DNA of 59,484 bases, counting the filler, from Jimgerdemannia flammicorona (taxonomy: Eukaryota), in NCBI GenBank assembly GCA_003990765.1. It is 3 parts of 3 records of this genome, joined end to end, with 100 filler letters (N's around TTAATTAATTAA, not from the genome) between each part and the next. Parts side by side here need not be neighbours in the genome. Positions count along the whole stretch, not along the records: positions 39,729 to 59,484 come from RBNJ01001857.1; 2 more parts are not named here. One strand, written 5' to 3'. Positions 15,649 to 56,900 of this stretch are shown in pieces (position 1 is the stretch's first letter; each line of letters starts with the position of its first letter). The notes beneath the pieces are model-generated. The model searched no databases. It saw only the letters and a program-made list of their open reading frames with translations, and was not told the origin of the DNA. The position numbers and the translations under genes were made by a program.

Positions 15649-15785
15649 CAATATTTTCTATATTTTGAGATATATGATCATTAATATAAATTAAAGTAGA
15701 ATACAAATTTACCTTTTTAATAGTATAAGCTATTTTTAATTAGGATATTTGTTTTTTTAAATAGTATTTTTTAAAAAATAAAATG

Positions 15786-16150: not shown

Positions 16151-17530
16151 AGAGTTTTTTAAAAGATATCTCAAATGAGATATATAATAAAAAAAAATAA
16201 AAACTAGTTAACTTTCTCTTCAGAATTTTTAACTTAATTTCAAAATATAAGTTCTGACATAATAAACCTTTTCTCTAAGAAATATAAAGACTATAAATCT
16301 AAAAGTCAGTTAAAGTATATTAAACAAAAAACAAAAAACAAAAAACAATAGAGTTTTATATAGTTTTATAGAGTAAATAATGGTTTATTATCAATAGTAT
16401 TCAAAGAGGTTAACTTCAGATTAAGATTTAAGTCCAATATATATATATATATATCCAACTTTTGATATTGCAACAGATAATAGAGATAGACTAGTTATAT
16501 GCTTGAGAAGAGGCAGAAGACTCGACCATTCAATTGTCACATGATCACGTGACCAGTCACATGATCTCTGATTACATGTTTGCTGAGATTTGGCAGTCAT
16601 ACTATTTGGTCACATGACAGGGAGTTGCAAGTGATGACACAGCAATTAACGCCCACAGTCACATCCTGAAACAATAGTCACATCCAAAAGTCACGAATCC
16701 ACCAAAACGAGACAAAACGGGCCGTTCGGAGCGTATATGGCAACTGTCAAGCTCCGATTTACCAGGCCAGTATGCAGAGAGAGTGTTCAAAATGGAAAGC
16801 ATTCTCTTCACACGGGTTCTAATTAAGGATGTATAAGCTACCTGCCAGATTTTGAATGCTTCTGGGGTTGCGTGTCGAATCCTTATTTATGTTTGGGATC
16901 TGTAACAGAACCGAACCATCAAGTACGGACTCCGATGCCTAGGCGGAAGGGGTATTATACCATGACTTTCATTTCTGAAATACCAACTTGTTAATTACAT
17001 TTACTGGTATGAGGTTTCTTGGGTTCGTACCGATGCATTTCCGACCGAAAAATGGTAGATAAAAACCGGCATCTGCTGGAAATTTTTACTGAGGGGAAAA
17101 TATATCAGAGTGCACATAATGGCAAAGCTTCGATACAATATTTCAGTAGATTTATCATAACTCAGACCGTAAAAGCTCAAACTGTTCTTGGTTTCGCTAT
17201 CTCGAAAAATACCAAATATCAATTCATATGAGAGTCGCATATTTTGATATTAGCCATAAACATATTGAAATGTCATAAAATAAATACAATTTTACATATT
17301 ATTGACATATTGCGAGTCTCATAGAGATTCACGGCATAATATTTTGACTCGATCCTATACTTGAGCACCTTCCAGCTCATGGAAGTGACCCTGTTCATTA
17401 TATTGTATTCACTACATATAGGAAACACTTGAATATTCAAATAGAAGTGCGACGTGATCGAACGGTAATAACTATGTTAGAGTAGTGTATTGTTCATAAT
17501 GCTGTGTGCACTCATAGGTAACTCATTCCC

Positions 17531-19767: not shown

Positions 19768-19867
19768 NNNNNNNNNNNNNNNNNNNNNNNNNNNNNNNNN
19801 NNNNNNNNNNNTTAATTAATTAANNNNNNNNNNNNNNNNNNNNNNNNNNNNNNNNNNNNNNNNNNNN
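19768..19867. other. Artificial contig-joining linker (N44-TTAATTAATTAA-N44)
   Basis: Exactly 100 bp with stop codons in all six frames, and identical to 39629-39728. Confidence 0.97.
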
Positions 19868-29571: not shown

Positions 29572-29620
29572 GGCTTGTTTCAATGAAGCGCTTGGAGGAA
29601 CCAAGCGGCGAACTTACAAA

Positions 29621-36500: not shown

Positions 36501-39500
36501 AAAGCTGTACCACCGTGCGACCTCTTCGGGGTTTTCTACGGCCAGCGGAGATCCTGTGGACCGGACAATGGCCTCTGAGCACGCAATCTCAATTAGATTC
36601 TGCTTGCACTTCTCAAGCATTTCTGCCTTGTCCGAGACTTTCCCCCAGTTCGAATGTCGCATGACAAGACAGCGGAGGGTGTTATCACCGCAGTATCCGA
36701 CGAACATGTCATACACGCCAAACATTTTGCCATGTGCTGAGATTTTGATGGCCCATGTAGCTAGCTCCTTGACCACAGCGGAGTTTTCTTCATTCAGCAG
36801 CGAATCCCATCCGATCCTCTGCTTTTCGAAACGATTTAGGAGGGGAGGGTCGGCATGTTCCACTGCGCTTTGATCCATTATAACGATGCATCTGAAATCT
36901 TCATGTACGGGACACATAGGGTTCGCGAACTCGCCTGGATTTTGTTGATGAAAATTATTATTTTGAGTCCTCTTCAACTTTTAGTGATATAAAGAAAAAT
37001 AGTCATAGAAATTTACGAACCTAATGCAACGCGACAAAAGTTCTTTTGATCCTTCCCACTGCCGACGCTCGTGTAGTTTTTGTTCCAGAGATCATAAAGA
37101 GATCCTAAATTGAGCGGGATAAAGTACGTAGTGATGATTAAATACTCCACATTTTAGATTTCTCATTCGCAAAGGCGAAGCATTACAATCGTTACCGTAG
37201 ATGATATCCAAGTCTTTCAAAATGACAGGCCTCCCTTCTTCAACACATAGCAGGATTTTGTTGAGGACGCCGTATGCATAATTGCTGCTATCTTTATCGG
37301 CCGGGAATTGTGACCCATACATGACTTGAGGGGTTTTTCGCGTCCAGGATTCATGGGTGAAGGCGTTCGCCAAGGTGTCTATGGTTAAGTCACTGTCCCC
37401 AATGGCCATGAGGTGGCGCGCATCGGGGTCTCCAAGACTGGCACGAATGCACTCGAGAGCTTGAGGAAATCTTGGGACCTCATTCTCACCATTCAGATGT
37501 TTCCCTTTAAAAATGGCCCGTGGGAAAAACATATTGCACAACATCTCAGGACTCTCATCCCCGCCAGAAAAATTGCGCGCGACAGCCTCTTGTACCGCTG
37601 CTGGTGTCAACTCCGCGTCACCTCGACCAAGACTTTTGACCAGCGCATAATAGTCCCGCAGTCCGTGAAAATTCTGAATCCGCTGATGCTGTTGATATTT
37701 GTCGTATCCTCTGGCCAGGGAGTCGAGAGCATTCTCTGGGAGCCTCACCGTCATCAGTCCTTTTGTAGTCTCCTTGACGTCGTTAATGTCCTGTCTTGGC
37801 CTTTGAATGCGAATTGCGCGCGACATTTTGGAAGCTGGTTTTCATTAGATTAGTAAGTATATTTTAGAGGGAGTATAATTTAAAGAAGGTACATTACACC
37901 CTGACGTGCGCATCTAGCCCCTTCTGCAGAAAAGGAGAGGATATGGTGGACAAAATCTTTGAAACTTACCGTCAAGTCGCCAGTTACTTATTCCAATCAC
38001 AGCGACTTCAGGACAGGCGTCGGGACCTTGCGGCTCCAGAAGGGCATGCAGAACCTTGAGGGGGTTGAATGGGCTCGTCTCGGCGAGGCCGACTAATAGT
38101 TTTGGGGTATTCTTTATTGTATCTGATCTGGATAAAGAAAAGATAATTGTAATTATATTAACAAGAAACTTTACCTTCATCCAATAAGACCACTGCTCTT
38201 GAAGGAAACCGATCAGTATTGCTCTTCTCCTGATAACGCTCAGCTTTTTTGAAAACTTTGATAATGCCTTCAGAAGTCGATGATGTTGATCCTTGATGCG
38301 GAATGACATAAACCTGGAAAAAGCCAAAGTTCTGTCAAGGCTCCGGAAGAAAATCAATTTTTATTGACGTGCGAAACCAGTGAAAGTGCAAACCTGAGGG
38401 TGAGTTTGAAAATACTGGTCGGATGAATCAAGACCGCGTAGATTTTCCTTCACAATTTTTATCGCCAGGCTCTTTGACGCGCCAGGCGAACCGATGAGGA
38501 AAAGCGGGGTACGGGTCAGAATGCAAGCGATCATAGAGTGTACATTCTCAAGGAGGGCCTCGTTGAGCGCCGTGAATGCCGGTAGTCGCATGCGGTGCAG
38601 GTAGTCCAATTGATCCTGGCGCACAATCTGAAGAAAATCGTCAGGACTGAGTACCATACGATGTTTACTGAGGAACACGCCACTGATAACGGAGCGATAT
38701 TTAGCGCGGTCTTTTTGTTCACAAAGTCTACCCTGGTACGCAATTGAAAGAGCGAGGACGATGGCGCGGACGTCGCTGAACTTGTCTTTTTTTGGTGGAT
38801 ATTCGGAGCATTTTGCAGCGGTACAAGTTTCTCGGTGAAGTTGAGACTTTTCTTTTCGTGCAGCCGACTTGAGTTCCTTATCAAAGAAATTTGCAAACCG
38901 GATAGCCCGCTTGACGTCACGAAGGCTGACGCTATACATATCCTCAACCGAACGGATGAATCTTTGCGACTCGAACAGCAGCTCAGCAAATAGAAGGACA
39001 ATGGCAGATGGTGCCGGCGTCGCTGTTCCCGAAACATGTCGTCCCATAGTGAGGCTATTCGCCATGATATTGATGTATGCCTTCTCATCCCTTTCCTCAA
39101 GTGTGCCGTAGTCCCAAATGAGATCAACCATTGCCTCGGGAAGCGGATGGACCTGATAGACGAGCTGACTTTGTTCCTGATATCGAGTTTTCAAACCGGC
39201 GTCGTTCGTAATGGTTTTTCGCAAACGATAAGGATTGCATGCAGCCATCAGTCGAATATTTGTATGGATCTTGTGGCCCAATAACACACGATCGCATATC
39301 AGCGATGATAGCATCCGGATGTAGTTGCAAGTGTTCACTTCGTCCAAAAAACTGCCGATCATCAATGAGTATGATTAGAAAACAAACCGTGAACATGTTT
39401 TTCAACGAAAAGATGTTTTAATTTCCTTGGAGGATAGCATATACTTACACCCAAACTTCGCCACGCGTTGCACGTTCCTCTGCGTCTTCCATGAACTTGA

Positions 39501-39628: not shown

Positions 39629-39728
39629 NNNNNNNNNNNNNNNNNNNNNNNNNNNNNNNNNNNNNNNNNNNNTTAATTAATTAANNNNNNNNNNNNNNNN
39701 NNNNNNNNNNNNNNNNNNNNNNNNNNNN
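39629..39728. other. Artificial contig-joining linker (N44-TTAATTAATTAA-N44)
   Basis: Identical to 19768-19867. Confidence 0.97.
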
Positions 39729-39883
39729 TAAAACAAAATGGCATTTCATTGAGTAGGGGTGGGGGGGAGAGGGGGGTCCTCCTAGGGGAATTGGATGAGG
39801 GGTGGGCTTAATGTATTTATATGGGATAGATGGATATTAATAAAGGAAGGAGTCCAAGAGACAATAAAAAAAAAAAAAAAAAA
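39729..39883 (+). mobile_element. 3' end and poly(A) of an L1/Tx1-type LINE inserted in the Gypsy 5' LTR
   Basis: ...GPPRGIG* followed by taataaaggaaggagtccaagagacaat(A)n matches the 3' end of the LINE at ~47670-47794. Confidence 0.85.
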
Positions 39884-41320
39884 CTGTGAGTCATTATGAC
39901 CACAGTTCAGGTATCTTGAAGAATATAAAAGAAGGATCAAGGAACTGCAGTAGCAGCAACTCAACAAAACTCACTAATCTCAAAATAGCTCAAAGACTTA
40001 CTATAAATAAAATGCCTGCTACTCACCAAATCTCAAGGTCAAGAAATCACCAAGGCACCTCAGTTGAAGAAAGGATGTTCCAAGACATCAGAAGAGCTAT
40101 GAGGACCTATACAAGAAGGACTCCTAGCCTCAACCTGGGTACTGCAGATCCTTATCACTTTATTCTCTACTGCTGTGAAATGGAAATAAGGATCACTATT
40201 GCTACCAAATGCCTCTAAATGTAGCAGGAGTATAAAATAGGAAACTTTCTCTGCTGGAAGTTCCCACAGGCCAGCCTCCAAGAATTACAAGATACCACTC
40301 CCATAGATATATGACAGCTAAGAAGATTCATCAGATCTTCAGGCATGTACCATAGTCAATCCCCAACTTAGAGTATATTAAAGTCTCAGATTTCAGAGAT
40401 CTGTCAGCCTACCATATCAATGCACTAGAAGTCAGAGTGACTACAGAAGCCCAGTCTACCATCATCCTCAACAGTGATAAAGTAGAAGACTTCTGGTATC
40501 CCATCTTCCAGGACAATTCAGATCAATTCCTGCAAAGATTGATCTCAGTATTCCAAGGCCCAAGCATTCAGGTTTGACCTCTCCAAGACCCCACATTTAT
40601 TCCCTATTTTATGGAAGAGAACCTCATAGACTAGAGAGCCCCAGACCTTCTTGTTCCCACTGCTGCCAAATGTGATGATGTCATCAGTGATAATGTCACC
40701 CTGCATGATATACATATATGAAGTATATAAAATATATGATCTATATGATGAGACTGAAACATTTGCAGACCTCATCTCCTTTGAGGATAGTGATAACAAG
40801 GATGAAGTCTCTATAGTTCTGAACATTCTGCTCTAAGTTCTTTAGTTATACTGAATTATGCCAGCATCCTTTTTCTATATAACAGCTGTTCCTCTACTGG
40901 TATTCTGACCTTGTGACTCAGAATTATTCCAGCATCTTAAACCTATGCAACCATCTATACTGACCCTGGAACTTGGCAGTTTTCTATACTCCAGCATTTT
41001 TATTGGTTATTGGAATTTATATTTAGCTTTATATCTTAGCAATCATTGAATTATATTTTATATAAATACCCTTCTTATTTTCTCTGAAATAAAGTCAGTC
41101 AAGTTCACTTATATACACTTCCTTGTAAGCAATCTAAGAAATAATAAGACAGTTTAAAGATAAGAAGTTTGAGGACTATAAGACCTTAGGAAGGTACTCA
41201 AATAAGAACTTGCTTATAACAAACTTGAGTTAGTCTAAGAGATACACCTTGAAGAGAATCTGATATATTTGAAGGACTCTGTGACCACTATATGACAACT
41301 TGGTGCCCATTGGCTGGTGA
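39884..41320 (+). repeat. 5' LTR (5'-truncated, ends ...TGACA at 41297) and primer-binding site (TGGTGCCC..., ~41301-41320)
   Basis: TATATAAA at ~41059, AATAAA at ~41088, and a terminal CA followed by actTGG. Homologous to 53015-53955. Confidence 0.7.
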
Positions 41321-41893
41321 TTCAAAACAAATCCCTCACTTTCAAGCTGAAAAATGAACAACCACCACAACAACTACCCTGACTACAAGAGTCACCTCTG
41401 TAAGAATTCAAGATAAAATAGAAATGTACCCCCCCACATTCTATGGATATACTACTAAAGAGTCAATCCTGACCTTTATTGAAGACTTTGAACAATTTGC
41501 TACTGTATGAGTCTTTAGTGTGGATACACAATTGGCCCTTCTACCAGTCAGTCTCAGAGGACCTGCCAGAGATAGGTTCAATGCAGTCACTATTACTGAT
41601 GCTGATATAGCCAAACTTACCAACATGAAGGCCTTTCTCAGAATAACATACTATACTAAAGAGATCAAGTAAGCTCTCAAGGATCAACTCAATATTATTT
41701 GCCAGAGACTCAATGAAGATCCCAACTCATTCTATACCCAAATCTGCTATCAGATTGTCTTAGCTGACTATGATAACTGCCTCAAGGAACAAATAGCAGA
41801 TTCAACCTTCCTCAAAAAAGTTCACCCTGAAATTGCCCTAACAATCCAGTCTACCTCAGCTATACTGACCCTTGATCAGAAAGTGATCTTTGT

Positions 41894-44800
41894 TACCATT
41901 CAGATTACACAACCTTTAGAGGGCACTCACAACATCATTTTTGGAGAAAAGAGACTAACAATATGGCAACTGACAGGCAACCTGAGGTGTGTACTGGGCA
42001 GGGTGGCCCAAGTACTTTCGACTGGTAGCAGGTGGAGAGAGGCCCAGGCCTGGGGGGGGGTATGAGGGGGCTGCTGGTGGGTGGATGTAGAAGGGGTAGA
42101 GGTGGTGGCAGAGGCTCCAGATCTGGGAGAGTAAGCTTCATAGAGATGGTGAAGGGGAGACAGCAGGTATCAGGGCTGGAGGGCTGGCTGAGGAAGGGTA
42201 AGGAGACCAGGAAGGTGACAGTGTAGGCAGGAGCAGCCCTTGGAAGGGGGGGCAGTGGAGCTGGGGGAGTAGTGGCTGGGGAGAGTGTGACTGCTGATAG
42301 TGATAGGACTGTCAATCTGGAAAAAAATCCAGATGTGATAGCTGATGGTGAGGCTGAGCAGCTGAGGCTTAGAAGACAAGGGGACTTGGTGGATGGTGTA
42401 ACAGGTCTGGCAGTGGCCCCATTGCTCAAAAAATCAATTTCGGTATTCGCAGTTACACTGTGCTTCTGGGCCTAGTGGTGACAGTGAAAATGATGCTGGA
42501 GCTCATTGCTAAGTAGGTGGCAGGAGCTATGTCTATGAAGTTTTTGAAGGGACTGGAGGGAGTAGAGGTGGGTTTTGAGGAGGCGGCACTGCTGGAGGAG
42601 GTGGTGCTGCTGGAGGAGGCACTGAAGGTTGGATTGGTGGTTGGGGAAGTATGTGTTCTGATGGCACATTACCTGAAGTGGGATCCCAGGGTGGTCCAAC
42701 TGCTGGTGAAAGGAGTACTGATAGTGATAGTGATGGAGATGAGAAAGAGAGTTGAGGATTTCATGGCAGAATATGGAGAGGTGGTAGATATCAGATTCAG
42801 GGTCTGGGAAGGGACCTTGCTCAGAACTGGTGATGTGGATGTGAGAATTCGGCTAGCTGAGAAGGAAGCTACTGGGAAGGCAAGGGACTGGCCTTTGGTA
42901 ATAGTCTGGGGAGCAATCTTATATAAGGTGATGAGGGTGAAGGGAAGTGAGGAGGAGGAGGAGGATTTATTGGAAGCACTAGAAGAGTTGGGTAGTGCTG
43001 TAGAGAGGCAAGCAAAGGCTTGGGAGACTTTTGTGGAGTCGATGCACTTAGAGGTGGTGGATGGAAAGTGGATTCAAGTGACCAAGGAGTAGTGAGAAAG
43101 GGCTCAGAGGCATAAGAGATAGAAAGAGCTGCTGGCCAAGCTGGACAACAGACCACTGGGGGATATAAGCAAGGTGAAGGGCACAGGGGGAGCTGAAGCA
43201 AGTGTCTGGGCCAGTGAGGGGGAGGGGAAGGACAAGAAGGAGGCAGGGGAGAATAAGGAGAAGCCTAGTAATGACCCATATGCTGATGGTATGCTGGAGG
43301 TTTGGGAGGAGGACTGGGAGGGCTTCCCTACTCCTACCTCTCTTATCAGGCATGACCCGGCTTCCCAAAACAGAGTGGTCAAAGATGTGTCAATGCAAGG
43401 AGCCCAGAGGGTGCAATTTGGAGTTCTGGAGGCAGCATATGGGGGACAGGTAGTGGTGGCTGGAGAGGAGGAACTGGTGGATGTCCCAGAGGTTTGAGAT
43501 GAGTCTGCAAGCACTGGAGCTGACACCATAATGTTGGATGGAGGGAGGTTGGTGACTCTGGGGGGGAAGGAGGTGGGGAACTTACTTTGGATATGCTGGA
43601 TGATAAATAACCTGGCAGCAGAAGAGTTAGGGGAGGTAGACTTATGAGTGATGAGTGATGAGCATTGGGCAAGGATACTGCAGGGGGATGGAGTAATGAA
43701 GGCATTGAAGGTGGAAATTCTTGTGGTGTACCTGGAGGAGGAAGAGTATAAGGTAGATAAGGAGAGAGAGGCAGAGATGGCAGTCGTTGCTAGAGAGAGG
43801 GCTGAATACTGCTGGAACAAGTGTCATGGACTGCAGCTCTAGCAGGAGACATGTCTAGAATACCAAGAGGAGTTCGAGGAGAAGGCAGATGGAGAGATGA
43901 ATGAACTGCTGGCTGGATTGGAGGCTCAGAGGGCAGAAGAGAAAGAGGTGGCTGTGGAACATAATCTGGACATGGCACAGGAGGAGATGAGCATAGAGCA
44001 GTAGAGATCAATTGACAGTATAACATATTTCATTATGAACAGTATAACCAACATTTTTTCTTTAAATGTGAATGGGTTACAGGGTGCTGCTTGATGTAGG
44101 AACATTTTTACTTAGATGAAGAGATTGGAGGCCAATCTCTTCCTCTTGCAGGATGTCAGGTATAAGGATGATTCTGATAAGATAGAATGGATGAAGGAAT
44201 GGAGAGGTGTGGCGATTTAGAAGGGCAAGGTTGGAATTTTGATTTGAAAAGGCAGAGGGGAGATACAGGATGTGAGGAGCTAGGGAGAGAGACTGGTCTG
44301 GGGTGAGTGGATTCATGCAGACTGGGAGCTAGTTACCATTGGCTCCTGTTACTGCCCTGCAGTATGGGGTGAGTGGGTAGATTGGGTGAAGAGTTTACAG
44401 GAGAGTGGGATCCTTGCAGAGGCTGGGGTGGATATGCTTGGGGGAGATTTCAATATGGTTCAGGACATACTATTGAATAGAACAGATGGAGGATGAGGTG
44501 CTGAGAGCAGGAGTAGAGGACTGGTGGTATGGGAGAAAGTAGAAAGACTTAGTATGCTGGTAGATGCTAGTAGAGAGTGCTGGGGGAATAGGAGGGTTTA
44601 TACACATTGGGCAGGAGGTCTGGGAACAAGAATCGACTGGATTTTAATGGCCAGCTGCTAGGGCCTAGATGTTTGGAAGTCACTGGAGGTGGAATGGTGT
44701 CCATGGTCGGATCACTGGGGGCTTTTGGGACAGGAGTGCTTTGGGGGAAGTGGGGATGGACCTGGACATTGGTACCTCAATTTCTCTTTGTTAGATGACA

Positions 44801-47754
44801 AGACCCGGTGGGATGAGTGGGCTAAAGACATTTAGCTGAGGATGGAGAACTGGTGGTGGGAAGGTGCCTCAGTTGGGGTTCAGTAGATGAGGATGAAGGA
44901 GATGGTCAAGATTTACTGGAGTGAGGCTGGTAAGGAGGCAGGGAAGCAGAGAAGGTGAAGAGTGCATTGGGCTTCTACTAGATTAACTAGACTCCTGGAG
45001 GAGTGGGCAAGGCTGACAATATTGGAGAGAGAGGAAGATTGGAGATTAATGAGGGCAAAAATGGAGGTTGGGAAATTACAACAGGTGCTGCAAGAAGAGA
45101 AAGAGGCAAGGGTACAGAGCTTGGCAGCATAACTTCGCTGACAGGATCTGGAGGAAGGGGAGAGGCCTTCCAAGTTTCTTACAAGGACCCTTAGGGCAAG
45201 ACAAGTACAGCAACAGTGGGAAGGGGTGTTGGACTCAGATAGTATATGTACTGGTACATAGTGTATAGGACATTCTTGGATCGCTGAAGGAGAGATGGAG
45301 TGGATTGTGGAGTGAGGAGGAGGGTGGGGCAGATGCTGCTACCATTGACTGAATATTGGAGGATTGGCACCCACCACAAGTTGAGGGGCTAGGTGACCTG
45401 ATGATGCCTGTACAGGAGGATGAGATCCACCAGGTTCTTGCTGTGACAATGCCAGGTACAGCGCCTGGGGAGGATGGTCTGCCCTGGGACTTTTGGAAGT
45501 GAATGGTTGGAGTCCCAGAGGTGATGGGGGAGATGGCAGTATTGTGCAACTTTATTCTATAGATAGGGAGGTGGGTGGGGGAGCAGGACCTTGGACTGGT
45601 GATACTGCTTTATAAAAACAAAGGAAGGCAGGAGGATTGGAAGAACTGGCAGCCGATGATGTTGCTAGATATGGACAGAAAGTTGGTAACTAAGGTGGTG
45701 GTGGCAAGACTACAGAAGGTGGTCCAGCAAGTCGTGGGTGTTGAGCAGAGGGGATTTGTGGGTGATCAGCTCATTAGGGATGGCACTGCCTGGGTAAATA
45801 GAGTTATTGAAGGGGCAAGGGCCTATGGACTGGATGGGCATCTAGTCTTCTTGGACCAGGAGAAGGCTTATGACCGGGTATGAAGAGTCTGGCTGGTGAA
45901 AGTTTTGGATAGAATGGGGGTTCCATACTAATTCCGGTCAGCAATGGTCAGCCTACTGGAAGGGAGTAGGGCTGTATTCATGTGTAATAGACATAGAGGG
46001 GTAGCATTCCCCTTGGGTAGGGGGGTGCCCCAGGGGGACCCACTGTCCCCCATTTTGTATGCTCTTTCCCTAGAACCTCTTATGGACAGAATTAGGCAGA
46101 GAATAGCAGGGCTCTCTGTCTTTGGCATTGGATAGAAAGTTGGGGCCTTTGCAGATGACATGATGGTTGGTTTGGGTTTGATTGCTGATGTTGAAGAGCT
46201 CAAGAAGACTGTGGAGTGGTATGAGGAGAACTCTGAAGCTAAGCTGAATTGGCATAAGTGTGAAACAATGGTGCTAGGCAATGGCCTGGAAGGAGGAGAG
46301 GTTATAGGAACAATCATCCCCACTGGTGAAGCAGTATAGTACTTGGGTATCTATTTGTTAGTCTATGGGTCAGTTCTGCCCAGGCTTTGGTGGAAGCAGA
46401 TGATTGAAATCTGGGAGGAGGCCCTGCAGAGTTGGGGGGGAAGACAATTTTCTCTGGTAGGGCAGGTCTCGATTTTGAATGTCTACTGGCTGCCGAAGTT
46501 GTGGTATCTGGCATATCATCTGGACTTCCCTGCCTGGGTGGTGAAGAGATTGATGAAGTCAGCAAAGGGATGGATTTGGGCTGGCAGGCAGAGTCAGATT
46601 AATTGGGAGACCTTGTCCCTATCAGTGGTGAGAGGTGGTCTTGGGCTGGTTGACTTTCCAAAATAGTTACACTGCTTGAGAGCATGGTGGCTAAAGAGGG
46701 CAGTGGAATTGTGAGAAGGTGGTTAGATTCCTCTGCTGCAGAAGATCTGGGAGAGGTAGTCATTGCTAAGAGGCTCAACTGGCGATCTCCTCTTATTGGT
46801 TGGACTTCAGAATACTGAACAACTGCAATATAAGGGATTTTGGTGGGGGATAGTAGAAGGGGTGCACTGCATTGGAATTTGTTAGCAGGGAAATGAAGGA
46901 GAGGTGGCTTGGGACCTGGTGATGTGGAGATGGGATCATATACTGCTGGGTGGCACTCCTTTAATTGAGTTTGACATTGGTGATGGAATGAAATGCCAAA
47001 GGGGACCAGGCCAGGATCTGTGGCCTAGCGGTTGGCAAGGAGTTGGAATTGGCAAAGAGTGGAACTGACATGGTGTTTGGACCTGGAGTGCCGCAGTGAA
47101 GAAGTGGATGCTGCTAAAGTACTGGGTGGTCTGGTGGCACATGCTGTGGAGGAATATAATGCTCAACTTTCGCTCAGGGCACCTTATCATAGGGGGTTGC
47201 TTCGACTGTGAGGAGTGCCATAATGTAGGGCAGGAGGGGGATTATGTACAGACACCTGAACATTGGCTAGGAGAGTGTAAGGTGTTGGGGGATTTTTGGC
47301 AGACAATTGGGGAATGCTTGGGGGTATGGCATAGGGGAGATGAAGTATGGGGGAGGTGGGAGGACTTGAGGGATAGATTGGTAGGGGGGATAGAGATGGA
47401 GTGGCTTACTTTGGGCTGGGCTTTGACTATTTGAGTGGGGCTGGCCAGTTACTGGCTATTTGTTTTTGAGGATAGGAGGAGATAGGACTTGGGGGATCAG
47501 TTGTTGTGGTGGCATAGGCTTATGGAAGACACCTTAACAGGCTGGTGGCTTGGTTGGGGGCTGTAGAGTGGTCAGAGGTACTGCTTAGTAGAGAAAATTT
47601 GTGGACAGAGTAGGGGGAGAGTTAGAGTAGTTGATGGAAGGGTGATCTTTGTTCATAAAGAGGTGGGGAGGGGCCCCCCTATGGGGATTGGATAGTGGGT
47701 GGTGGTGATGTATACTTATTCATAGACTGGTAATAAAGGTAGAGTCCAAGTGAC

Positions 47755-47796
<42 letters not shown>

Positions 47797-47805
47797 GATC
47801 TTTGT
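41894..47805 (+). mobile_element. Apparently full-length L1/Tx1-clade LINE (~5.9 kb) with poly(A) and a 14-bp TSD
   Basis: TSD aaagtgatctttgt at 41880-41893 and 47792-47805. Removing the insert restores the gag frame (QKVIFV/QRYWTAR). ORF1 relic at ~42030-44020, ORF2 from 44035. Confidence 0.93.
44035..47695 (+). pseudogene. LINE ORF2 (APE endonuclease, RT, C-terminal Cys/His knuckle), stop-interrupted
   Basis: SLNVNGL, LLQDV, GGDFN, RIDWIL, SDH; APGEDGL, WQPMMLLDMD.K, QRGFV, LDQEKAYDRV, GVPQGDPLSP, FADD, YLG; C..C...EHWLGEC. Confidence 0.92.
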
Positions 47806-49417
47806 ACAGAGATATTGGACTGCTAGATACTCTGCTGAACACTCAATAGAGAAAATAACTGGCATCAAGATAGAGCCATCAAAGCCAACTAGTATCATAT
47901 CTACTACAGTTATAAACAGACAACCATCCCTACCTACCCCCAAGGCAGCCAAAGCTGACCCAGTGGAGGAACTCACCAAGCAGTTTGCTGAGATAACTGT
48001 ATATCTTGGTGATATTGTTAGAGAAGTCTGAAGTACCAACAGGAGACCAGTACAGAGATTTGCAGCTGCTACAGAAGAATATAATATCACATACTTCAGA
48101 TGTAAAGAAGAAGGCCACTATATAAAGAGTTGCATGACTGAAATAAGATGCAAAGCCCAACCAAGCAATGCTAGCAGAATCAGAGAACAAATCAATGCAG
48201 TAGTCATCAAGGAGATTGGTAACACTGATAATAAAGAATACTATAAGAAACTTGAATTCTACCCTGCTACTAAAGATACCAGAACTCAGTCCAAGTCCTA
48301 TGACAAGAAGAGCAACAGCAAGTCAGTTAGAAGACCAAAGAAGACCCCAGCTATCACTATTCAAAGCAAGACCCAATCTGAGAAGATTGATCAAGATATG
48401 GAGTTAAATAAAGCTGCCTACCAAATCATTGAAGGCACTACTCCAGTCTTAGTAGAAAGTGAAAGCAAGAAGGAATAGAAGCTGCATAAGACTAAGATCC
48501 ACTAGTATGATATCTACAAGGACCTCAAGAAACAGAAGATCAATGCTACTTTTGGACAGCTAGCTGAAGTTCCTGCCTTTAGACAGCAGTTAAGAGTAAG
48601 ACTTACAACTACCACCAAGAATCAAGAGTACAAGATTATAGAAGCTCACAATGTATAAGAAGATGATCAAGAAGACTCAAGTGAAGAATCTGAAGACCAG
48701 TACAAGACATCAGCCTATACTCCATATCAGATTGAAGATTATATCTTTGATATTATCATTGATACTAGTGCTAGAGGATGCCTCATGAGTAAGAAGACAA
48801 TTGACTGCCTAGGCTGAGATATTGAAGAGTCCACCAAGATAGTCTATATCATAGCAGATGGTATACAAGCTACCCCTCTTGGCAAAATCTGAGAAGTCCC
48901 TATCAAGATAAGAGGAGCTACCATCCTAGTAGATGTGATTATTATAAGTATCACCAACTATGACATCCTTATTAGCAACCAAAGGTCAAGGCCATCATTG
49001 ACCTCAATGCCCAGAAGATGCAGATCAACTATAGAGAAAGAAAGGTATGAGTCTTTATCAATGTCTATAAAGGAGTTCTACTAGACATAGAGGAAGGAGA
49101 TGAAGAGGACACAGAAGTCTTCATGTACTCGATGAACAAGAATAAGAACAAGACACTCAAGCTCACAGATGAGCAGTAGTACAATAAGATTATTGATGGC
49201 TATGCCTCTCAAGGAAGATGCCCCCATGGTACTAGAATATACTACTCTGAACACCTGAATGACTGCTGGTCCTATATTAGTGAAGTCAGGAAAATCTGCC
49301 AACAGAAGCATAAATAAAAAGCTGCTGAAGCAAAAAGGAAAGCCAAAGAAGATGACCAGCCTCCAGAGCTTCAAGCTGATAGTGATGATGAGGAGGAACA
49401 AAAACCAGATATTACCC

Positions 49418-49827
49418 TCAAGATTAAGAAGTTTCACCCCAAAGCCAAGATCCCAGAATATAAGACTGAAGGAGCCATAGGAATGGACCTTGTCAGCATT
49501 CAAGATGCTACCCTCGAACCACAGACCACCACTCTACTTGGTACCAGAATTGGAGTCAAGCTGCCAGAGAACTATGCTGGAATTATCAAGACTAGAAGCA
49601 GTCTGGCCAAAAGTAAAATCTCAGTTGAAGGAGGAGTAATTGACTCTGATTATACTGGTAAGATCTTTCTCATAGTCAGAAATCACAACTCCACCACCCC
49701 ATTTGAAGTCAAGAAGTATAACAGGATTAGTCAGATGCTGATCTATGAAATTAAGAAACCCAAGATCACTAAAGTCATCAAACTCATCAAGATCAAGAGA
49801 GAAGAACAAGGCTTTGGATCTACTGAA
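49418..49827 (+). pseudogene. dut: Trimeric dUTPase domain within Gypsy pol, between PR and RT
   Basis: All five motifs present: GMDL, RSS, GVIDSDYTG, RISQ, R..QGFGST. Confidence 0.93.
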
Positions 49828-52580
49828 AGAGGAGCCTATACTGCTACCAAGATTACTGAACTTGAATACAAGAAAGATAGGGACCAGAACAAGCACATAT
49901 ATACTATTGGAGAAAACTTTCCCCTAGAAGAATAACTTCTCAAGATTCTACACTAGAATAAAGAAGTACTTACTACAGACTTCAGAGATATCCACAATCA
50001 AGAACTCAAGTACTATCATGAAGTTGATACTGGTGATACTAAGCCCATCTACCAGAAAGCCAGATTTATACCACCTGCTTACAGAGAATGGCTGCAAGCA
50101 GAACTTAAGGAAATGGAAGAAGCCAGAATCATCAAGCAAGCTATCAGTCCCTGGGCTTCACTCATTGTCCTTACTCTGAAGAAAGGAAGCAAGTCTGGAG
50201 AGTTTGTGTCAAGACTCTGCATTGACTACAGAAAGCTCAATACAATCACTAAGAAGGATAGGCAGCCCTTGCCAAATATTTAAGAAATTCTTACCACTCT
50301 TGGAAGCAAAGCCAAATACTATACTACCTTGGATCTGTTCTCAGGCTCCAATCAGATTAGTCTCACTCAAGGTACCAGTGAGAAATCAACCTTCATTATA
50401 CCTGATACTACCTATATCTACCTATGAATATCATTTGGAATATACAATACCCCAGCAAGTTTTCAGTAAATGATAAACAGAGTCTTCAGCAATGAGATTG
50501 GAAAATAGCTCTTTGTCTATGTTAATGATGTGATCATCTTCAGCAATACTGTATGGGAATATATCAACCATATACAGCTAGCCCTCAAGAAGCTCAAGGA
50601 GCATGACCTCTACATCAAGTCCAAGAAGTGTAAGTTTGTAGCTCAGGAAATTACCTACCTAGGACACCTCATTAACCAGACTGGAATCCATACAGACCCT
50701 ATGAAGATTGAGGCTATTGCAGCCTACCTGAGATCCAGAATAACTACAGAAGTCCATGTCTTCCTTAGACTAGTCTCCTACTACAGAAGATTCATCAAAG
50801 GATACTCCAATATTGTAGCACCTATCTACAAGCTACTCAAGAAGGAGACCAAATTCAAATGGACCAAGAAATACCAAGAAATCTTCAATAAACTCAAGAC
50901 CAGGTTGACCTAAGTACCTATTCTCAGAAGACCAGATTGGAACCTAGAGTTCATCCTGTAGACAGATGTAAGTGCTATAGGACTTGGAGCAGTCCTAGCT
51001 CAGAAGAAAGATAGACATGAATATGATATCTCTTATATAAGCCAAGATACCTGTGGAGCAGAACAGAACTATGAGTCATATAAGCTCAAATATTTAGCAG
51101 TAGTTTGGACAGTAGACAAGTTCCACTACTACCTAGCTAGAAAACACTTCACCATTCAAACAGACCATTCTGCTCTTACCTGGCTATTCCACACTCTGAA
51201 CCCTAAAGGAATATATGTCAGATAGATCTATAGGCTGCAAGAGTATAACTGTACTGTCAAGCACTGCTTAGAAAAACCAACACCAATGCTGATGCACTCT
51301 CAAGGACACCCCAAAACACCTCTATTAAGACTATTCAACATAAATAAAGAGTTATACTATGGATTAATTAGCTATCTTAGATAGCAGAAGATACCCAACC
51401 ACCTCAAACCCTAGATAATCACTATCATTAACCAGACTTAGAAACAGTTTGAACTAAACAATACTATACTTAGAAAAGGAGGAAAGCTTGTAATATCTAA
51501 ATACAAGAAGTATTAAGTAATGAAGGAAGTATACAAACAAGAATACCTAGGAGGAACCAACATATATGACAAGGCAAGAAGAACTATATGGTGGCTTAAG
51601 ATAGAAGAAGACCTGTGCCAATTTATCAAAGGGTGTGACAAGTGCCAAAAACAGAAATAAGATCAGTAAGATCAGACACCTAGGTCATCAAAAATTGAGC
51701 CTATTTCCTTCCACCATATCACAATAGATATCATTGGGCCACTACTAGTAACACTATCAGGAAACTACTATATTATAGTTATTGTAGACCTCTTTACCAA
51801 ATAGATAGAAGCAAGAGTATTATTAGAAGCTAATGTGCTCTCTATAGCCAACTTTCTATATCTGTCACTATAAGACATCAAGGCAAATCACCACAGACCA
51901 TGGCACAGAATTTGTCAATGGATTCTATGAGATAATATATCAGAAATACAAGATTCAGCACATCAAGACCACTATGTACCACTCTCAAGAAAATGGACAG
52001 ACAGAGAGAACCAACAAGACCCTCAAGAACATTCTGGCAAAGATCTCAGATACATATGAGAATTGGGATAACTACCTCTCTACTACCCTCTCTGTCCTAT
52101 AAAATATATGGTCACAGAGTACACACTTTACCCCAAGAGAACTGCTCTTCAGAAAAGAAGATTCTGATAGAACCTCAGCTACAAATCTAGATCTAACTTA
52201 GAGATAGGTTGACTCAGAAATCTGGAGACTATACCAAATTAGAAAGAAGGCTGAAGATTATATCATCAAGTCACAAGCACTGATAAGAAAGAATGCAGAA
52301 AAGAATTATAAGACTCTAGAATCCATCCAAATTAGAGAAAAGGTCCTACTGTATTAAAATATGGTAGAAGCCTCATAGTCACGAAAACTGGAGCCTAAAT
52401 GGAAAGAACCCTTCTATATATAAGATATCAAGAGAACTACCTTCTGGCTTAGAAAAATCTCAGGGACCATACTGCCTATCATGGTACATAGAAACAGATT
52501 CAAGAAGTACCATAAACCTATATAAGAGAAGCAAAAAATGATGATCACCCATGAGGTTCTAGTTCATGAATCATAACAGC

Positions 52581-53141
52581 ATGTTCCATAATCAGCAGGC
52601 TATCTGTCTAGACCATTCTCTAAGAGATACAGCACCAGCAACTACTTATCCATAAGACTTTCAAAGCCAGAGAAGTTCAAACTATCAACTGATTGATCAA
52701 GATCAGAATCAGGCCCTTACTCTATATAAAGAGAGTGACTCTTCACCATTATGCCAAAATATATAGAGAAGATATCAATCTATAAATACTACTTTTTGAC
52801 CCCTTGCCAGAGGTTATAGGATTAGCAAATTTTTCAGAACTAGACTAATGAATAAGGACATTCAAGAAGATCCTTATTCAGGAGAAAGATGTAACAGTGA
52901 CCTCAGAATGATGACATCAGCACAAGAGACAGCCTTTCCTTGTAAGTTACTAGATTGGAACACAAGAATATCATACAGCATGACTCAGGCTATGAGATGA
53001 GTAATAATAACCAACTGTGAGTTATTGTGACTACAGTTTAGGCATCTTAAGAAATATAAAAGAAGAATTAAGAAACCATAGTAGCAGCAACTCAACAAAA
53101 CCCACCAATTTCAAAATAGCTCAAAAACTTACTATAAATGA
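52581..53141 (+). pseudogene. Accessory ORF3 downstream of integrase, crossing the PPT/LTR junction
   Basis: The ATG lies 3 nt after the pol stop. One frame runs ~185 codons, with internal stops each one transition from Q/R/W codons. The 5'-LTR copy reads LEEYKRRIKELQ in the same frame. Confidence 0.45.
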
Positions 53142-53953
53142 AATATCTGCTGCTTACCAAACCTCAAGGTCAAGGAACTACCAAGACACCTCAGTTGAAA
53201 AAAGGATATTCTAAGACATCAGAAGAGCCATGAGGACCCATATAGGAAGGACTTCTAGCCTCAACCTGAGTACTGCAGATCTTTATCACTTTATCCTCTA
53301 CTGCTATGAAATGGAAATAAGGATTACTATTATTACTGAATATCTCCAAATGTGGCAGGAGTACCAAATAGAAAACCTTCTCTGCTAGGAGTTTCTATAG
53401 GCCAGCCTCCAAGAATTATAAGATACTACTCTCATAGATATATGAGAAGCAAGAACAGCTAAGAAGATTCATCAGATCTTCAGATATGTACCATAATTGA
53501 TCCCCAACTTGAAGTATATTAGAGTCTCAGATTTTAGAAATCTGTCAGCCCACTGTATCAATGCATTAGAAGCCAGAGTGGCTACAGAAGCTCAGTCCAT
53601 CATCACCCTCAACAGTGATGAAGTAGAAGACTTCTGGCATCTCATCCTCCAGGACAACCCAGATCAATTCCTACAAGGATTGATCTCAGTATTCCAAGGC
53701 CCAAGCATTCAGATTAGACCTCCCCAAGACTCCACATTTGTTCCCTATTTTGTGGAAGAGAACCTTATAGACTAAAGAGCCCCAGACCTTCTTGTTCTCA
53801 CTGCTGCTAAATGTGATGACATCATCAGTGATGATGTCACCCTGTATGACATATGTAAAGTATATGAAACATACAACCTATACAATGAGACTGAAATGTT
53901 CATGGACCTCATCTCCTTTAAGGACAGTGATGATAAGAATAAAGCCTCCATGG

Positions 53954-53955
<2 letters not shown>
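52880..53955 (+). repeat. PPT (aggagaaaga, 52880-52889) and 3' LTR starting TGTAAC at 52890, truncated by a LINE at 53956
   Basis: A purine run is directly followed by TG, and the sequence is homologous to the 5' repeat from 53015 onward. The left boundary cannot be verified because the 5' copy is truncated. Confidence 0.6.
53143..53955 (+). pseudogene. Accessory ORF4 inside the long terminal repeat (second copy at ~40012-40836)
   Basis: The same reading frame is kept in both copies: MPATHQISRSR..EERMFQDIRRAMR..HFILYCCEMEIR..ARTAKKIHQIFR..LEYIRVSDFRDLSA..FQGPSIQ. Most stops are copy-specific. About 270 aa. Confidence 0.55.
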
Positions 53956-53990
<35 letters not shown>

Positions 53991-56900
53991 GTCACTTAGA
54001 CTTCTCCTTTATTACTGCCATCTATAATAATAATAATACAATATTACTCCATCCCCTCAACCAATACTCCTCAGATCTACTTCTCTATCCTCCACTTCCT
54101 TCTACCAGAGGATAACTCAGTTGCCCACCACCTGAATCCTCCTGCCACATTTCTGAGAAATACACTGTACCAAATCCCAGCAACTCCCCCCACCCAACTC
54201 CCACCCTCTCCACCAGCCATTCCAAATATCCAGTAACAACTATTCCCAACATACCACTCTATCCCCAACTTCAACCCCCTGGCCCTCCTCAAATATATGT
54301 AATCAATGCCTGACCAGCCCAACCTATATGGCCAGAGCCCAACCAAGTATCAGCCATTTATCCCCAACCCCTCCTACAAGCCTTCAGCAGAGCTCTCCCC
54401 ATCTCCCTTCCCCTCCCTCTAGGGCTCACAGCCCTAAGCAGTCTGCAATATGGCACCAAAACACCCCTAAAATGTTATACTCATCAAGCCAATGTTCAGG
54501 CATTTGTATCACTCCCTCTTCCTGTCCAACATCTAAACAATCCTTACACCCAAAAATGCCATCAGCCACCAAGTGCTCAGACCAATAGTTCAACATCACA
54601 TTCTATCATAGAATCTGCCACCATACTATCCAGAACTTGGGGGATAGCTACTGCATCACCTGCTTGCTCTAAAGCCAGAGACCATTCCAGTTCCACTCCT
54701 CACCAATCCCAACCCTCTGCCAGGTTTCAGGCCAAAGGTCTCCACCTAAGCTCCACAAATACTCTATTCCATCACTAAGCTGGAAATCCTCCACCAAAAC
54801 ACTGCCCAGCAGTAGCCTGTCCTATCTCCACATCTGTGGTCCCCAATTCTCCTCTCCCTCATCTCTCTGTCACTGAAGTTCAATTCTCTTAGCACTATCT
54901 ACCACCCTCAACCAAAAGCCCTTATACCACATCCTCTTGCTCCCATCCATAGCCACCATCACAAGCGGGTTACCAGAAGCTCTATGGGGGGAATACCAGG
55001 CCTCTCACACCCTCTGTATAAGTAGTACTCACTCCTGGCCCCTCAGCTCACTTGCTCTCCTCAGCCACCACACTCTCAAGCAATGAAGACATTTGGTAAA
55101 GTTCACTAAATCCAGCCTGCCTCTTTCCACTGATAGGGTTAGAACCTCCCATCCTATCTGACTTCACTGCCCTGCCCAGATTCATGATCTCACCACTTCA
55201 ACAGTCTCCTAACCACCCAAGCTGAGAAGTCCAGATAATACCCTACATACCACAGCTTCAGTAGCCAATACACATTCAGCACCATCACTCTTCCTACCAA
55301 GGATATATGCCGACCACCCCACTGCAAAAGCACATTTCCCCACACTAGGAGCTGCTGTTCCCACCAAGCATGGAGCAGAAGGGACCCATACACCAAAAAG
55401 TAGATCCCCAGGTAACAAACTGGCTCTCCTGCTGGCACTATCATCCCAATCACATCACCACTAATGATTCTGCCACCTAGCACCAGAGTCTCACATTTGT
55501 GTCAATTGAGTTTAGCACTGGAGTCTCTCTCATACCATTCAACAGACCTTTGCAATTCCCCTATATCTGCCAATGAGCCCAGTCTAACCACCATGTCATC
55601 TGCAAAGGCCCCCACCTTCCAATTTATCTCTAGAATGTCCAAACCCCCAATTCGATGCTGGATCCTATCCAGTAGGGGCTCTAGGTAAAGGGCATACATG
55701 ATGGGTGACAGAGGATCTCCTTGTGGCACCCCACGACCAAGAGAAAAGGTTACACCCCTATGGCCATTGATGATAAAAGCAGCCTGACTGTTTTCCAAAA
55801 GACAGATCAATGACCTTCTGAACTTTGGGGGAACACCAATCCATTTCAATACTCTCTCTAGCCAGATTCTCCTCACTCTATCATACACCTTCTCCTGATC
55901 CAAAAACACCAATCTGCCATCTACCCCAGTAGCCTGAGCCTCTTCAATTACACCATATACCCAAGCCATCCCATCTCTGATCAACCAGCCACTGACAAAT
56001 CCTCTTTGCTCTACACTAAGTACTTGCTGAGTGATTCCCTGCAGCCTTGTCACTAGGATCTTTGTCACCAGTTTGTGGTCCATGTCGAGTAGCATGATTG
56101 GCTGCCAGTTCTTCCAATCTTTCCATCTCCCCTTATCTTTGTAGAGCAAGGAGACCAGCCCTAGGTGCTGGCCCCCAATCTAAGTTCCAGACCCAGAGAA
56201 CCTCACTACACATTTCTATCATTTTCTCCAATACCACTGCCACTTCAGCTATCTTCTTCCAAAAATCCCAGGGAAGTCCATCCTCACCCAGAGCCATCTC
56301 CTTACTTGTTATAGCCAAGACCTTACAAATTTCCTCTCCCCTCACTAGATCCCCTAGAGTCCCCAGGCCTATTGCAGGGTCCAGATGCCAATCCTTCAGC
56401 TGTCTCTCAATGTTCAAGGCATCTTCCCCCCCTTTTTCCTTGCTCTACAAATCCTCCCAACAGGTCCTCAGCAATCTCAGAATTTCTGGAGTCCCCACCA
56501 CCATCTCCCCATCCTCATCCAAGAGCCCATCCCACTGCTGCTTAGTTCTCTGCACTTGTAACATCTGCAACAAAACCCTAGTGGGTCTCTCTCCCTCCTC
56601 AAGCCTCTGCCACCTCAGCCATACCAACATCCCCTTCAGCCTAACCTCTTCCTCTCTTCATAACACCTCCTTAAACTCCTCAACTTCCTTCTGAATCCTC
56701 ACAATATGCTAGTTGGCCACCTCCCAGCCTTCTAGCACTCCTGCCCATCTCCCCAGGAGTGCCACCAATCACTGTGAGGCCCATAGCACCCTTCACTGCT
56801 GCTGAGCACACCTTCCTTTCCCTGCTTCCCTCCAGTACTCCTGAGCACTTGCTTTCAGCCTCCTCCAGCAGTTCCCAATCACCAGGCCCTGTTCCCACCA

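Follow-up and report, generated by a model that had tools for sequence, protein, structure and literature searches.

The 14-kb feature at positions 39,884–53,955 of a stretch of 59,484 nucleotides from the Jimgerdemannia flammicorona assembly GCA_003990765.1, hereafter the window, raises the question of whether transposons outside the Dikarya have been hypermutated by a repeat-directed process, and of what kind. RIP and RIP-like mutagenesis are regarded as a trait of the Dikarya, chiefly of the ascomycetes. A preliminary description of the locus had proposed a repeat-targeted C>T system, either RIP-like or due to deamination of dense 5mC at sites including non-CpG ones, and the analyses reported here support this proposal.

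The Locus and Its Host

The window comprises three short contigs, with N spacers at 19768–19867 and 39629–39728, and the assembly is fragmented. The Rtt109 gene on contig 2 was 100% identical to a J. flammicorona protein, and the taxonomy of this early-diverging, mycorrhizal fungus (Endogonales, Mucoromycota) therefore places the host outside the Dikarya, as had been presumed; the contrary case that had been considered, ordinary RIP in a species of Pezizomycotina, does not apply.

A dead LTR retrotransposon of the Ty3/Gypsy type, with a dUTPase and with a LINE nested inside, makes up the 14-kb feature (Table 1), its direct LTR pair enclosing gag (CCHC), PR, RT, RNase H and IN in the order expected of Metaviridae. 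Ty3/Gypsy LTR retrotransposons carrying a dUTPase have been reported in fungi, and the present element resembles these in having gag, PR, dUTPase, RT, RNase H and IN between two LTRs, but this copy is dead, with 42 stops among the 1306 codons of the pol frame (48982–52899). The decay of catalytic motifs noticed earlier was found again in the zinc knuckle, the protease and the RT. None of the 120 protein-search matches listed was an intact full-length relative of the element at more than 39% identity. The nested LINE (G 36%, C 13.5%) is bounded by a 14-bp target-site duplication, AAAGTGATCTTTGT, at 41880–41893 and 47792–47805, and shares about 67% identity with the second LINE copy. No target-site duplication of the LTR element itself was readable in the sequence at either of its ends, and the final few bases of the 3' LTR were possibly lost where the following LINE joins with its poly(T). 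The two LTRs might also derive from two elements joined by recombination, which would change the dating and leave the spectrum unchanged.

Table 1. Positions of transposons, their parts and compositional blocks in the window.
Feature	Position	Strand	Basis or remark
CpG-free AT-rich block, presumed transposon relics (contig 1)	501–8500	.	CpG 0 vs 176 expected; compositional scar shared
Very AT-rich island, GC 9–20%, no CpG	14001–16500	.	~24-nt tandem array (repeat family D2)
LINE 3' tail fragment with A18 run, adjoining the 5' LTR	39729–39883	+	blastn, 77–78% identity to 3' ends of two other LINE copies
5' LTR of Ty3/Gypsy, hypermutated	39884–40822	+	Alignment to 3' LTR
Internal leader and gag start, up to LINE insertion site	40823–41893	+	ORF 41673–42065 runs into insertion point; no CpG
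Nested LINE (non-LTR retrotransposon)	41894–47791	+	RVT_1 match 45563–45883; poly(A) tail 47758–47794
gag remnant, CCHC zinc knuckle YFRC...H....C, first Cys to Tyr (48092)	48032–48478	+	Profile match and motif
Protease active-site motif, decayed to DTSA	48761–48772	+	Motif read
pol, single reading frame, many stops, no frameshift detected	48982–51661	+	Pfam, stops read as X
dUTPase domain of pol	49441–49825	+	Pfam
RT domain of pol, YVND at 50518	50191–50668	+	Pfam
RNase H domain of pol	50860–51247	+	Pfam
Integrase zinc domain of pol	51508–51661	+	Pfam
3' LTR, hypermutated	53015–53955	+	Alignment to 5' LTR
Second LINE copy, poly(T) 53956–53988, ends at contig end	53956–59484	-	RVT_1 match 55502–56179

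Substitution Spectrum of the LTR Pair

The LTRs were compared by alignment (blastn match of 39882–40817 to 53013–53954; repeat families D5, D6 and D8), which gave 945 columns, 931 of them ungapped, with 803 identities; two indels accounted for the 14 gap columns. The 128 differences consisted of 126 transitions and 2 transversions, so that the transition-only pattern first seen by eye extends over nearly every difference in the full LTRs. Transitions far exceed transversions, indels number two and 2.7 kb of pol carry no frameshift despite the stops; therefore, point mutation has far outrun other forms of decay. Two mundane sources, neutral divergence under a naturally high transition bias and an artefact of assembly or of sequencing (damaged DNA, for example), are the least credible for these differences and can hardly be entertained. 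The fragmentation into three short contigs would suit an artefact, and the two LINE copies (~67% identity) differ by 825 transitions and 730 transversions, a ratio of ~1.1, so deep divergence inside that family looks ordinary. Nevertheless, no usual bias would yield a count of 126:2 (binomial P = 6e-20 against a Ti/Tv of 2, and 2.6e-7 against 5.7), damage or chemistry would have had to spare the genes of the same contigs, which keep a CpG O/E near 1.0, and in contigs from three coded metagenome runs the variation of these families is likewise dominated by transitions.

The differences were distributed as 70 C/T and 56 G/A, in proportion to the numbers of C (244) and G (187) inferred for the ancestral sequence, with 55 and 70 mutation events in the respective copies; both strands and both copies were affected. 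Within each LTR, no clustering of C>T versus G>A into strand runs was found (35 runs vs 28.3 expected and 40 vs 35.6 expected; runs tests, P(<=observed) 0.98 and 0.89). Former CpG was the source of 20 of the 126 transitions, the other 106 lying at CpA, CpC or CpT. All 10 former CpG sites seen as TG-vs-CA differences had been converted in both copies, and 0 CpG remain in either LTR. Conversion per copy reached 55/302 at CpA (18%), 34/228 at CpC (15%) and 15/284 at CpT (5%), depending on the 3' neighbour (P = 8.9e-6) and showing no effect of the 5' neighbour (P = 0.82).

AID/APOBEC-type enzymes hypermutate retroelements in animals, and a cytosine deaminase of this type, editing the cDNA during reverse transcription or the transposon DNA later, was considered; in its favour, the element encodes a dUTPase, with which some retroelements counter uracil in their own DNA. 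This explanation is very improbable, although slightly less so than an artefact. Editing of minus-strand cDNA would leave only G>A on the plus strand, but the two classes of change follow base content; edits made before plus-strand strong-stop copying would be shared by both LTRs, but these differ at 126 sites. The neighbour preference lies on the 3' side and not on the 5' side, and the complete disappearance of CpG from transposons at large is not what APOBEC enzymes leave behind.

Direction of Change and Variation within the Family

The direction of change is C>T/G>A, as observed by three tests. Against an intact relative (P0092, 80% identity, gap-free alignment of 495 amino acids), 98 amino-acid differences were found, 76 of them forward (a single C>T or G>A), 13 reverse, 4 by transversion and 5 mixed. 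The origin of the stops in codons mutable by C>T or G>A, as claimed earlier, was borne out by this alignment, in which all 8 in-frame stops stood opposite R, W or Q codons. The second reference consisted of 129 positions conserved across 120 distant Ty3 relatives; the element differed at 32 of them, with 18 changes forward and 1 reverse, 7 due to transversion and 6 mixed. As third reference, contigs of the family from metagenome runs coded X1, X2 and X3 were used, and in the 40 best-supported rows of run X1 the window carried A/T where all family contigs had G/C in 38. These 38 polarised private changes fell at CpA (14), CpC (15), CpT (8) and CpG (1), and the 18 best-supported private changes of the nested LINE were 16 G>A and 2 C>T. 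Confinement of the mutations to CpG, which had been named as evidence against the proposal, is thus contradicted by 106 of the 126 LTR transitions and by 37 of the 38 private changes. Across the family, the variable places counted as transitions/transversions amounted to 1381/232 in X1, 813/125 in X2 and 179/16 in X3, that is, ratios of 6–11, far below the 63 of the LTR pair.

CpG Depletion and Its Restriction to Transposons

The transposons of contig 3 retained 36 CpG against ~835 expected, with observed/expected counts of 0/71 (39884–41899, including the 5' LTR) and 3/226 for the LTR element, and 27/288 (nested copy, 0.09) and 6/250 (copy at 53956–59484) for the LINEs. Gene regions gave 344/314, 155/153 and 1242/1187. 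The contrast between CpG-poor transposons and CpG-rich genes was therefore stronger than first described, with O/E ranges of 0.00–0.09 and 1.01–1.09, and the borders fell between adjacent 500-bp bins. Similarly, CpG-normal DNA begins between two such bins at ~8500, at the edge of the contig-1 block, and CpG-normal genes lie on either side of the AT-rich island. The mutational process was thus observed to be confined to transposons, with neighbouring genes spared.

The composite index (CpA+TpG)/(ApC+GpT) was 1.26–1.65 in the transposons of the window. Values of 1.03 or less are usually taken as RIP-like, so the transposons would not be recognised at the usual threshold.

Comparison with Known Systems

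The pattern shares with RID-dependent RIP, as known from Neurospora crassa and further Pezizomycotina, the repeat-confined C:G to T:A change that affects either strand and every copy, the premature stops from CAA, CAG, CGA and TGG, a preference set by the 3' neighbour and the sparing of genes. RIP in Neurospora depends on RID/Masc1 and is set off by duplicated sequence during the premeiotic dikaryotic phase, and its events mutate long tracts on one strand. Such single-strand tracts are absent from the LTRs, the composite index is not RIP-like, and the order of conversion is CpG (saturated) > CpA ~ CpC > CpT, unlike the Neurospora order, in which CpA is far above the rest. The pattern thus departs from RIP sensu stricto, whose transition dominance is present here and whose CpA preference, index and one-strand clustering are absent. 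Moreover, the host belongs to the Mucoromycota, and PMC9963178 gives RID-1 as conserved exclusively in Pezizomycotina.

A RID-independent RIP that depends on DIM-2, DIM-5 and HP1 was reportedly described in Neurospora by Gladyshev and Kleckner in 2017, with H3K9 heterochromatin guiding a DIM-2-class methyltransferase, and its repeat C>T changes at CpG and non-CpG sites on both strands are also found here. The transposons of Basidiomycota are said by Horns et al. (2012) to undergo a CpG (TpCpG) hypermutation thought to be linked to methylation, which resembles the present case in its transposon-specific CpG loss in a fungus outside the Pezizomycotina. CpG-restricted decay of methylated DNA, of the vertebrate or basidiomycete type, agrees with the limitation of CpG loss to transposons, but is contradicted by the predominance of non-CpG changes. 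Entomophthorales, including Zoophthora radicans, offer another suggestion of RIP outside the Dikarya in a transposon-inflated zygomycete genome; the evidence in PMC11105155 (eLife 2024) consists of compositional indices together with methyltransferases whose domain layout is RID-like, and the authors attach caveats of their own. The case of Jimgerdemannia, in a different phylum, differs in resting on aligned, polarised substitutions.

PMC9963178 attributes DIM-2-like homologues to the Endogonales. The same source (Dataset S1) lists three DIM2-class proteins in J. flammicorona AD002 (471264, 479070 and 483080), the reciprocal best match of which is N. crassa DIM-2, along with homologues of KMT1, HP1 and Raf1/DIM-9, in likeness to the DIM-2/heterochromatin pathway. 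Unlike in Neurospora, the likeness here comes from sequence and listed proteins, with 24–29% identity between Endogonales DIM-2-like proteins and N. crassa DIM-2 (reciprocal BLAST).

Candidate Mechanism

A dependence on the 3' neighbour with no 5' effect fits an enzyme of the C5-DNA-methyltransferase type, and therefore a RIP-like pathway is proposed, in which transposon-targeted C>T mutation would be produced by DIM-2-like methyltransferases acting with H3K9-methyl heterochromatin, without RID. The chances that this proposal is right appear evenly balanced. Against it stand the lack of strand runs, the departure from the Neurospora context and index, the ordinary divergence of the two LINE copies and the lower Ti/Tv across the families. 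After integration, the element and every other transposon of the window would have been mutated by a transposon-targeted process acting on DNA in its double-stranded form; both strands and both LTRs were hit, CpG was wholly removed, CpA and CpC were converted more than CpT and the adjacent genes were left untouched. The DIM-2-like methyltransferases would act with KMT1 and HP1 in the absence of RID. The spectrum, its polarity and context and its confinement to transposons are observed, while the identity of the enzyme, active deamination by it over passive 5mC decay and any dependence on duplication or on a sexual phase are inferred.

Passive decay is a serious competitor, although we consider it probably wrong. 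Transposons dense in 5mCpG, and with sparser mCpA and mCpC set by DIM-2-like or other DNMTs, would then mutate by spontaneous, poorly repaired deamination, with neither a dedicated mutagenic step nor duplication sensing. The same spectrum, 3'-neighbour dependence, transposon restriction and CpG saturation are predicted; the lack of single-strand tracts and the even scatter across both copies would reflect slow independent events, and the AT-rich relic (GC 9–20%) suggests that decay persists once copies are no longer alike. In R. irregularis, of the sister subphylum Glomeromycotina, transposons are heavily CG-methylated according to PMC8647823. The rate, however, seems too high for passive decay: the visible CpGs are all gone, and ~0.2 substitutions per CpA site stand against 0.0011 transversions per site per copy, so that CpA has changed at roughly 180 times, and CpG at more than ~600 times, the transversion rate. 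In mammals, the excess at methylated CpG is about 30–50 times. In addition, pol is still without a frameshift across 2.7 kb, and the younger nested LINE is already at a CpG O/E of 0.09. The sequence would fit active mutagenesis and passive 5mC decay alike, with the rate argument leaning towards the active process.

Implications for Fungal Genome Defence

On the proposed RIP-like reading, the Endogonales may have a true RIP-type defence free of RID, in which DIM-2-like methyltransferases actively mutate C>T under the direction of repeats or of heterochromatin; this broader claim is put forward tentatively, its probability being a little short of even. If it is true, the DIM-2 branch of RIP predates the Mucoromycota–Dikarya split or arose twice. 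A RIP-like scar has not been reported in the Endogonales, a fungal group without such a process on record, and a polarised, alignment-based signature there would relocate the point at which DNMT-linked mutagenesis of repeats arose, or reveal a second origin; the DIM-2-like genes of early-diverging fungi would gain a testable role. In a 2025 kingdom-wide RIP screen that included the J. flammicorona genome, this genome was not flagged and only Ascomycota were concluded to show RIP-type signatures, and a 2021 paper describes Mucoromycotina as having no detected RIP signature. Such a defence, if present, would have been missed by index and k-mer screens because the change of CpG to TpG/CpA raises the very dinucleotides whose loss is screened, and because 73% of the genome is repeat. 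The coexistence of such a defence with a genome of 231 Mb that is 73% repeat is a puzzle in itself. The inflation of LTR-based dating anticipated in the preliminary description is evident from a divergence of 13.5% by transitions against 0.2% by transversions, and ages of transposons taken from LTR divergence or Kimura distance in these genomes would be inflated more than tenfold unless transversions only were counted.

Mutation Spectrum and Context of the LTR Pair

The two LTRs of the dead Ty3/Gypsy element on contig 3 differed almost only by transitions, the 931 ungapped columns of their alignment comprising 803 identities, 126 transitions and 2 transversions, with 2 indels. This excess was significant against a transition/transversion ratio (Ti/Tv) of 2 (P = 6e-20) as well as of 5.7 (P = 2.6e-7), and an artefact or ordinary divergence was judged a very improbable source. 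The differences were 70 C/T and 56 G/A, in keeping with the inferred ancestral content (C 244, G 187), and changes were found in both copies (55 and 70 events). The split of the spectrum over both LTRs and both bases indicated a mutagenic process that acted after integration and on both strands of the duplex. The LTR pair may be of recombinant origin, which would change its dating and leave the spectrum as it is.

The sequence context was analyzed with C or G assumed ancestral at every difference. Former CpG accounted for only 10 dinucleotide sites (20 differences), with TG in one LTR against CA in the other; no site of the TA-against-CG type was present in the pair and no CpG survived in either LTR, so that CpG appeared saturated. 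The other 106 transitions, counted by copy-sites, depended on the 3' neighbor, with 55/302 at CpA, 34/228 at CpC and 15/284 at CpT (P = 8.9e-6), and no effect of the 5' neighbor on conversion was detected (P = 0.82). A plant-like CHG preference was rejected, the values for CAG, CTG and CAT being 0.11, 0.01 and 0.24, respectively. No grouping of C>T or G>A changes into runs was seen within an LTR copy. The dependence on the 3' neighbor, the indifference to the 5' neighbor, the strand symmetry and the differences between the LTRs argue for a process linked to C5 methyltransferases and against editing of cDNA by an AID/APOBEC-type deaminase, which was considered improbable.

Direction of Change

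The direction of change was set with P0092, an intact JGI protein of 514 amino acids comprising dUTPase and RT. It shares 80% identity with the window copy and aligned to 48982–50466 in a single frame free of gaps. Among the 98 amino-acid differences, 76 were explained by one forward change on the window side (C>T or G>A), 13 by one reverse change and 4 by a transversion, with 5 mixed or ambiguous; all eight stops of the window copy along this alignment stood opposite R, W or Q. No close full-length protein relative was found, the 120 matches listed being all at most 39% identical, and the RT-to-integrase part was polarized only at deeply conserved positions. At 129 positions with at least 80% conservation among these 120 distant Ty3 relatives, the window deviated at 32 (18 forward, 1 reverse, 7 transversions and 6 mixed).

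Contigs from three coded runs (X1, X2 and X3; best word share 0.10) of a single soil-metagenome study served as family relatives only, and their depth and gaps were not counted as evidence. When they were aligned to 40900–53955 at a likeness of at least 80%, the variable places gave Ti/Tv counts of 1381/232, 813/125 and 179/16 for X1, X2 and X3, respectively. In 38 of the 40 best-supported rows, a sample chosen by the tool with 1905 further rows beyond it, the window carried A or T and every aligned contig G or C, the contexts being CpA (14), CpC (15), CpT (8) and CpG (1). Eighteen of the best-supported polarized rows lay within the nested LINE, showing that the LINE was affected too. The evidence came from a single LTR pair, a single closely related protein and a set of metagenome differences chosen by the tool.

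CpG in Transposons and Genes

The CpG counts of the transposons and of the gene-bearing stretches are presented in the table, and each switch between CpG-poor and CpG-normal DNA took place between two neighboring 500-bp bins. The AT-rich island of contig 1 (2.5 kb, GC 9–20%) is flanked by CpG-normal genes and carries an array, with a repeat unit of about 24 nt, that almost lacks C on the plus strand (C 11 and G 35 at 15501–16000); it may be a fully decayed repeat. Three tandem 52-nt units in a CpG-normal region of the same contig still contain CpGs and show both transversions and transitions among their differences, and short genic repeats seem to escape the mutagenic process.

Features of the window, with CpG counts
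Feature	Position	Strand	CpG observed/expected	Remarks
Contig 1 segment	501–8500		0/176	
Tandem 52-nt units	12171–12336			Three units
AT-rich island, contig 1	14001–16500		0/12.7	
N spacers	19768–19867; 39629–39728			Link three short contigs
Rtt109/KAT11 histone acetyltransferase ORF	28048–29613	-		Pfam 3.8e-30
Run of long ORFs	30573–39374	-		852, 789, 394, 249 and 337 aa
C-terminal ORF of the run	30573–33131	-		RZ-type zinc finger near its N-terminus
LINE tail with poly(A)	39729–39883			Adjoins 5' LTR
Ty3/Gypsy LTR retrotransposon	39884–53955		0/71; 3/226 (two segments)	Single element
LTRs	39884–40822; 53015–53955			Flank the Ty3/Gypsy element
Target-site duplication of nested LINE	41880–41893; 47792–47805			14 bp
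Nested LINE	41894–47791	+		Within gag; poly(A) 47758–47794
gag remnant, CCHC knuckle	48092			Inside LTR element
Protease motif	48761			Inside LTR element
dUTPase	49441–49825	+		Between protease and RT; Pfam 6.6e-29
Second LINE copy	53956–59484	-		Poly(T) adjoins 3' LTR
3' tail of second LINE	53956–54071			
Two LINEs			27/288; 6/250	
Gene-bearing stretches			344/314; 155/153; 1242/1187	

Possible Mechanisms

The process would be tied to C5 methyltransferases, and an active RIP-like process was given an even chance of being the cause. Passive decay by slow deamination of dense 5mC was regarded as a possible, though less likely, explanation: substitutions at CpA amounted to about 0.2 per site and CpG was lost totally, against only 0.0011 transversions per site per copy, and the pol frame was intact over 2.7 kb. 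Methylated CpG mutates in excess in mammals as well, but the rate ratios found here were at least an order of magnitude above that baseline. These rates lean toward a deamination step that is enzymatic or active rather than slow.

For an active RIP-like process, RIP in Neurospora is possible without RID via the DIM-2/DIM-5/HP1 route, and a route of this type would most likely be the model for J. flammicorona. According to the survey of Navarro-Mendoza et al. 2023 (PMC9963178), RID occurs only in Pezizomycotina and DIM-2-like homologues are present in Endogonales and Glomeromycota. For J. flammicorona AD002, Dataset S1 of that survey lists three DIM2-class proteins, JGI 471264, 479070 and 483080, which carry BAH and C5-methylase domains and have N. 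crassa DIM-2 (24–29% identity) as their reciprocal best hit; homologues of KMT1, HP1 and Raf1/DIM-9 are listed as well.

Comparison with RIP in Other Fungi

Several results were at odds with simple RIP, among them the transition and transversion counts of the LINE pair and the lack of a readable target-site duplication for the LTR element. The family-wide Ti/Tv was 6–11, far under the value of 63 for the LTR pair, and the composite RIP index of the window transposons was 1.26–1.65, values that the usual threshold would class as non-RIP. Neurospora RIP removes the dinucleotides that conversion of CpG to TpG/CpA adds in the J. flammicorona transposons.

No report of RIP-like mutation was found in the literature for Jimgerdemannia, Endogonaceae or Mucoromycota, and on transposable elements and methylation in Endogonales only the DNMT survey PMC9963178 was found. 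RIP signatures were described as undetected in Mucoromycotina by Dallaire et al. 2021, citing Venice et al. 2020, and such signatures were presented as unique to Ascomycota in a 2025 PLoS Biology screen. J. flammicorona, with 231 Mb and 73% repeats, appears in the tables of this screen, where its AT-rich 4-mers were enriched 1.5–4.0-fold in non-coding versus coding DNA but only 0.76–0.81-fold in transposons versus other non-coding DNA; on these tabulated values, the species failed the double criterion of the screen. A 2026 review assigned RIP to Ascomycota and described early-diverging fungi as 6mA-dominated. Compared with this literature, the J. flammicorona case is RIP-like in outcome but new in phylum and different in its context rule, and the process presumably operates without RID.

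Structure of the Transposons and the Gene-Bearing Contig

The LTR element also contains RT, RNase H and an integrase zinc domain, and every domain from dUTPase to integrase shares a single frame once stops are replaced by X. The closest protein relatives of this dUTPase-bearing layout were P0092 and the more distant P0098 (38% identity). The nested LINE has a clean target-site duplication with two still identical copies, and none was readable at the two ends of the LTR element. LINE 3' tails, inverted relative to each other, border this element on both sides, with A18 to its left and about T33 to its right. The LTR element may have landed where two LINEs met tail to tail, or LTR ends may serve as targets for LINEs.

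The two LINE copies were about 67% identical, with 825 transitions and 730 transversions counted over the blocks that aligned well, and were uninformative as a second polarized pair at this identity; most of their divergence probably arose between active lineages. Both showed a very strong sense-strand GC skew of about 0.46–0.5 (G 36–37%, C 12–13.5%) without an excess of T. An interpretation of this skew as a strand-specific C>T scar was dropped, since it is shared by both diverged copies and T is not enriched, and it looks like a family property rather than a mutation scar. The first-listed repeat family of the window (D1) consisted of the N spacers alone.

Ordinary genes were found on contig 2. 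The preliminary description had guessed from sequence that the fungus lay outside Dikarya, and rightly so: the Rtt109/KAT11 ORF was 100% identical to an NCBI J. flammicorona protein across 97% of its length, followed by matches from Endogone, Umbelopsis and other Mucoromycota, and J. flammicorona is classified in Endogonales, Mucoromycotina, Mucoromycota. The run of long ORFs on this contig resembles one giant gene. Beyond its C-terminal ORF, the ORFs of the run had no Pfam match; the RZ-type zinc finger in the C-terminal ORF (E = 4.8e-6, just under the Pfam cut-off) recalls RNF213/ZNFX1-like proteins.
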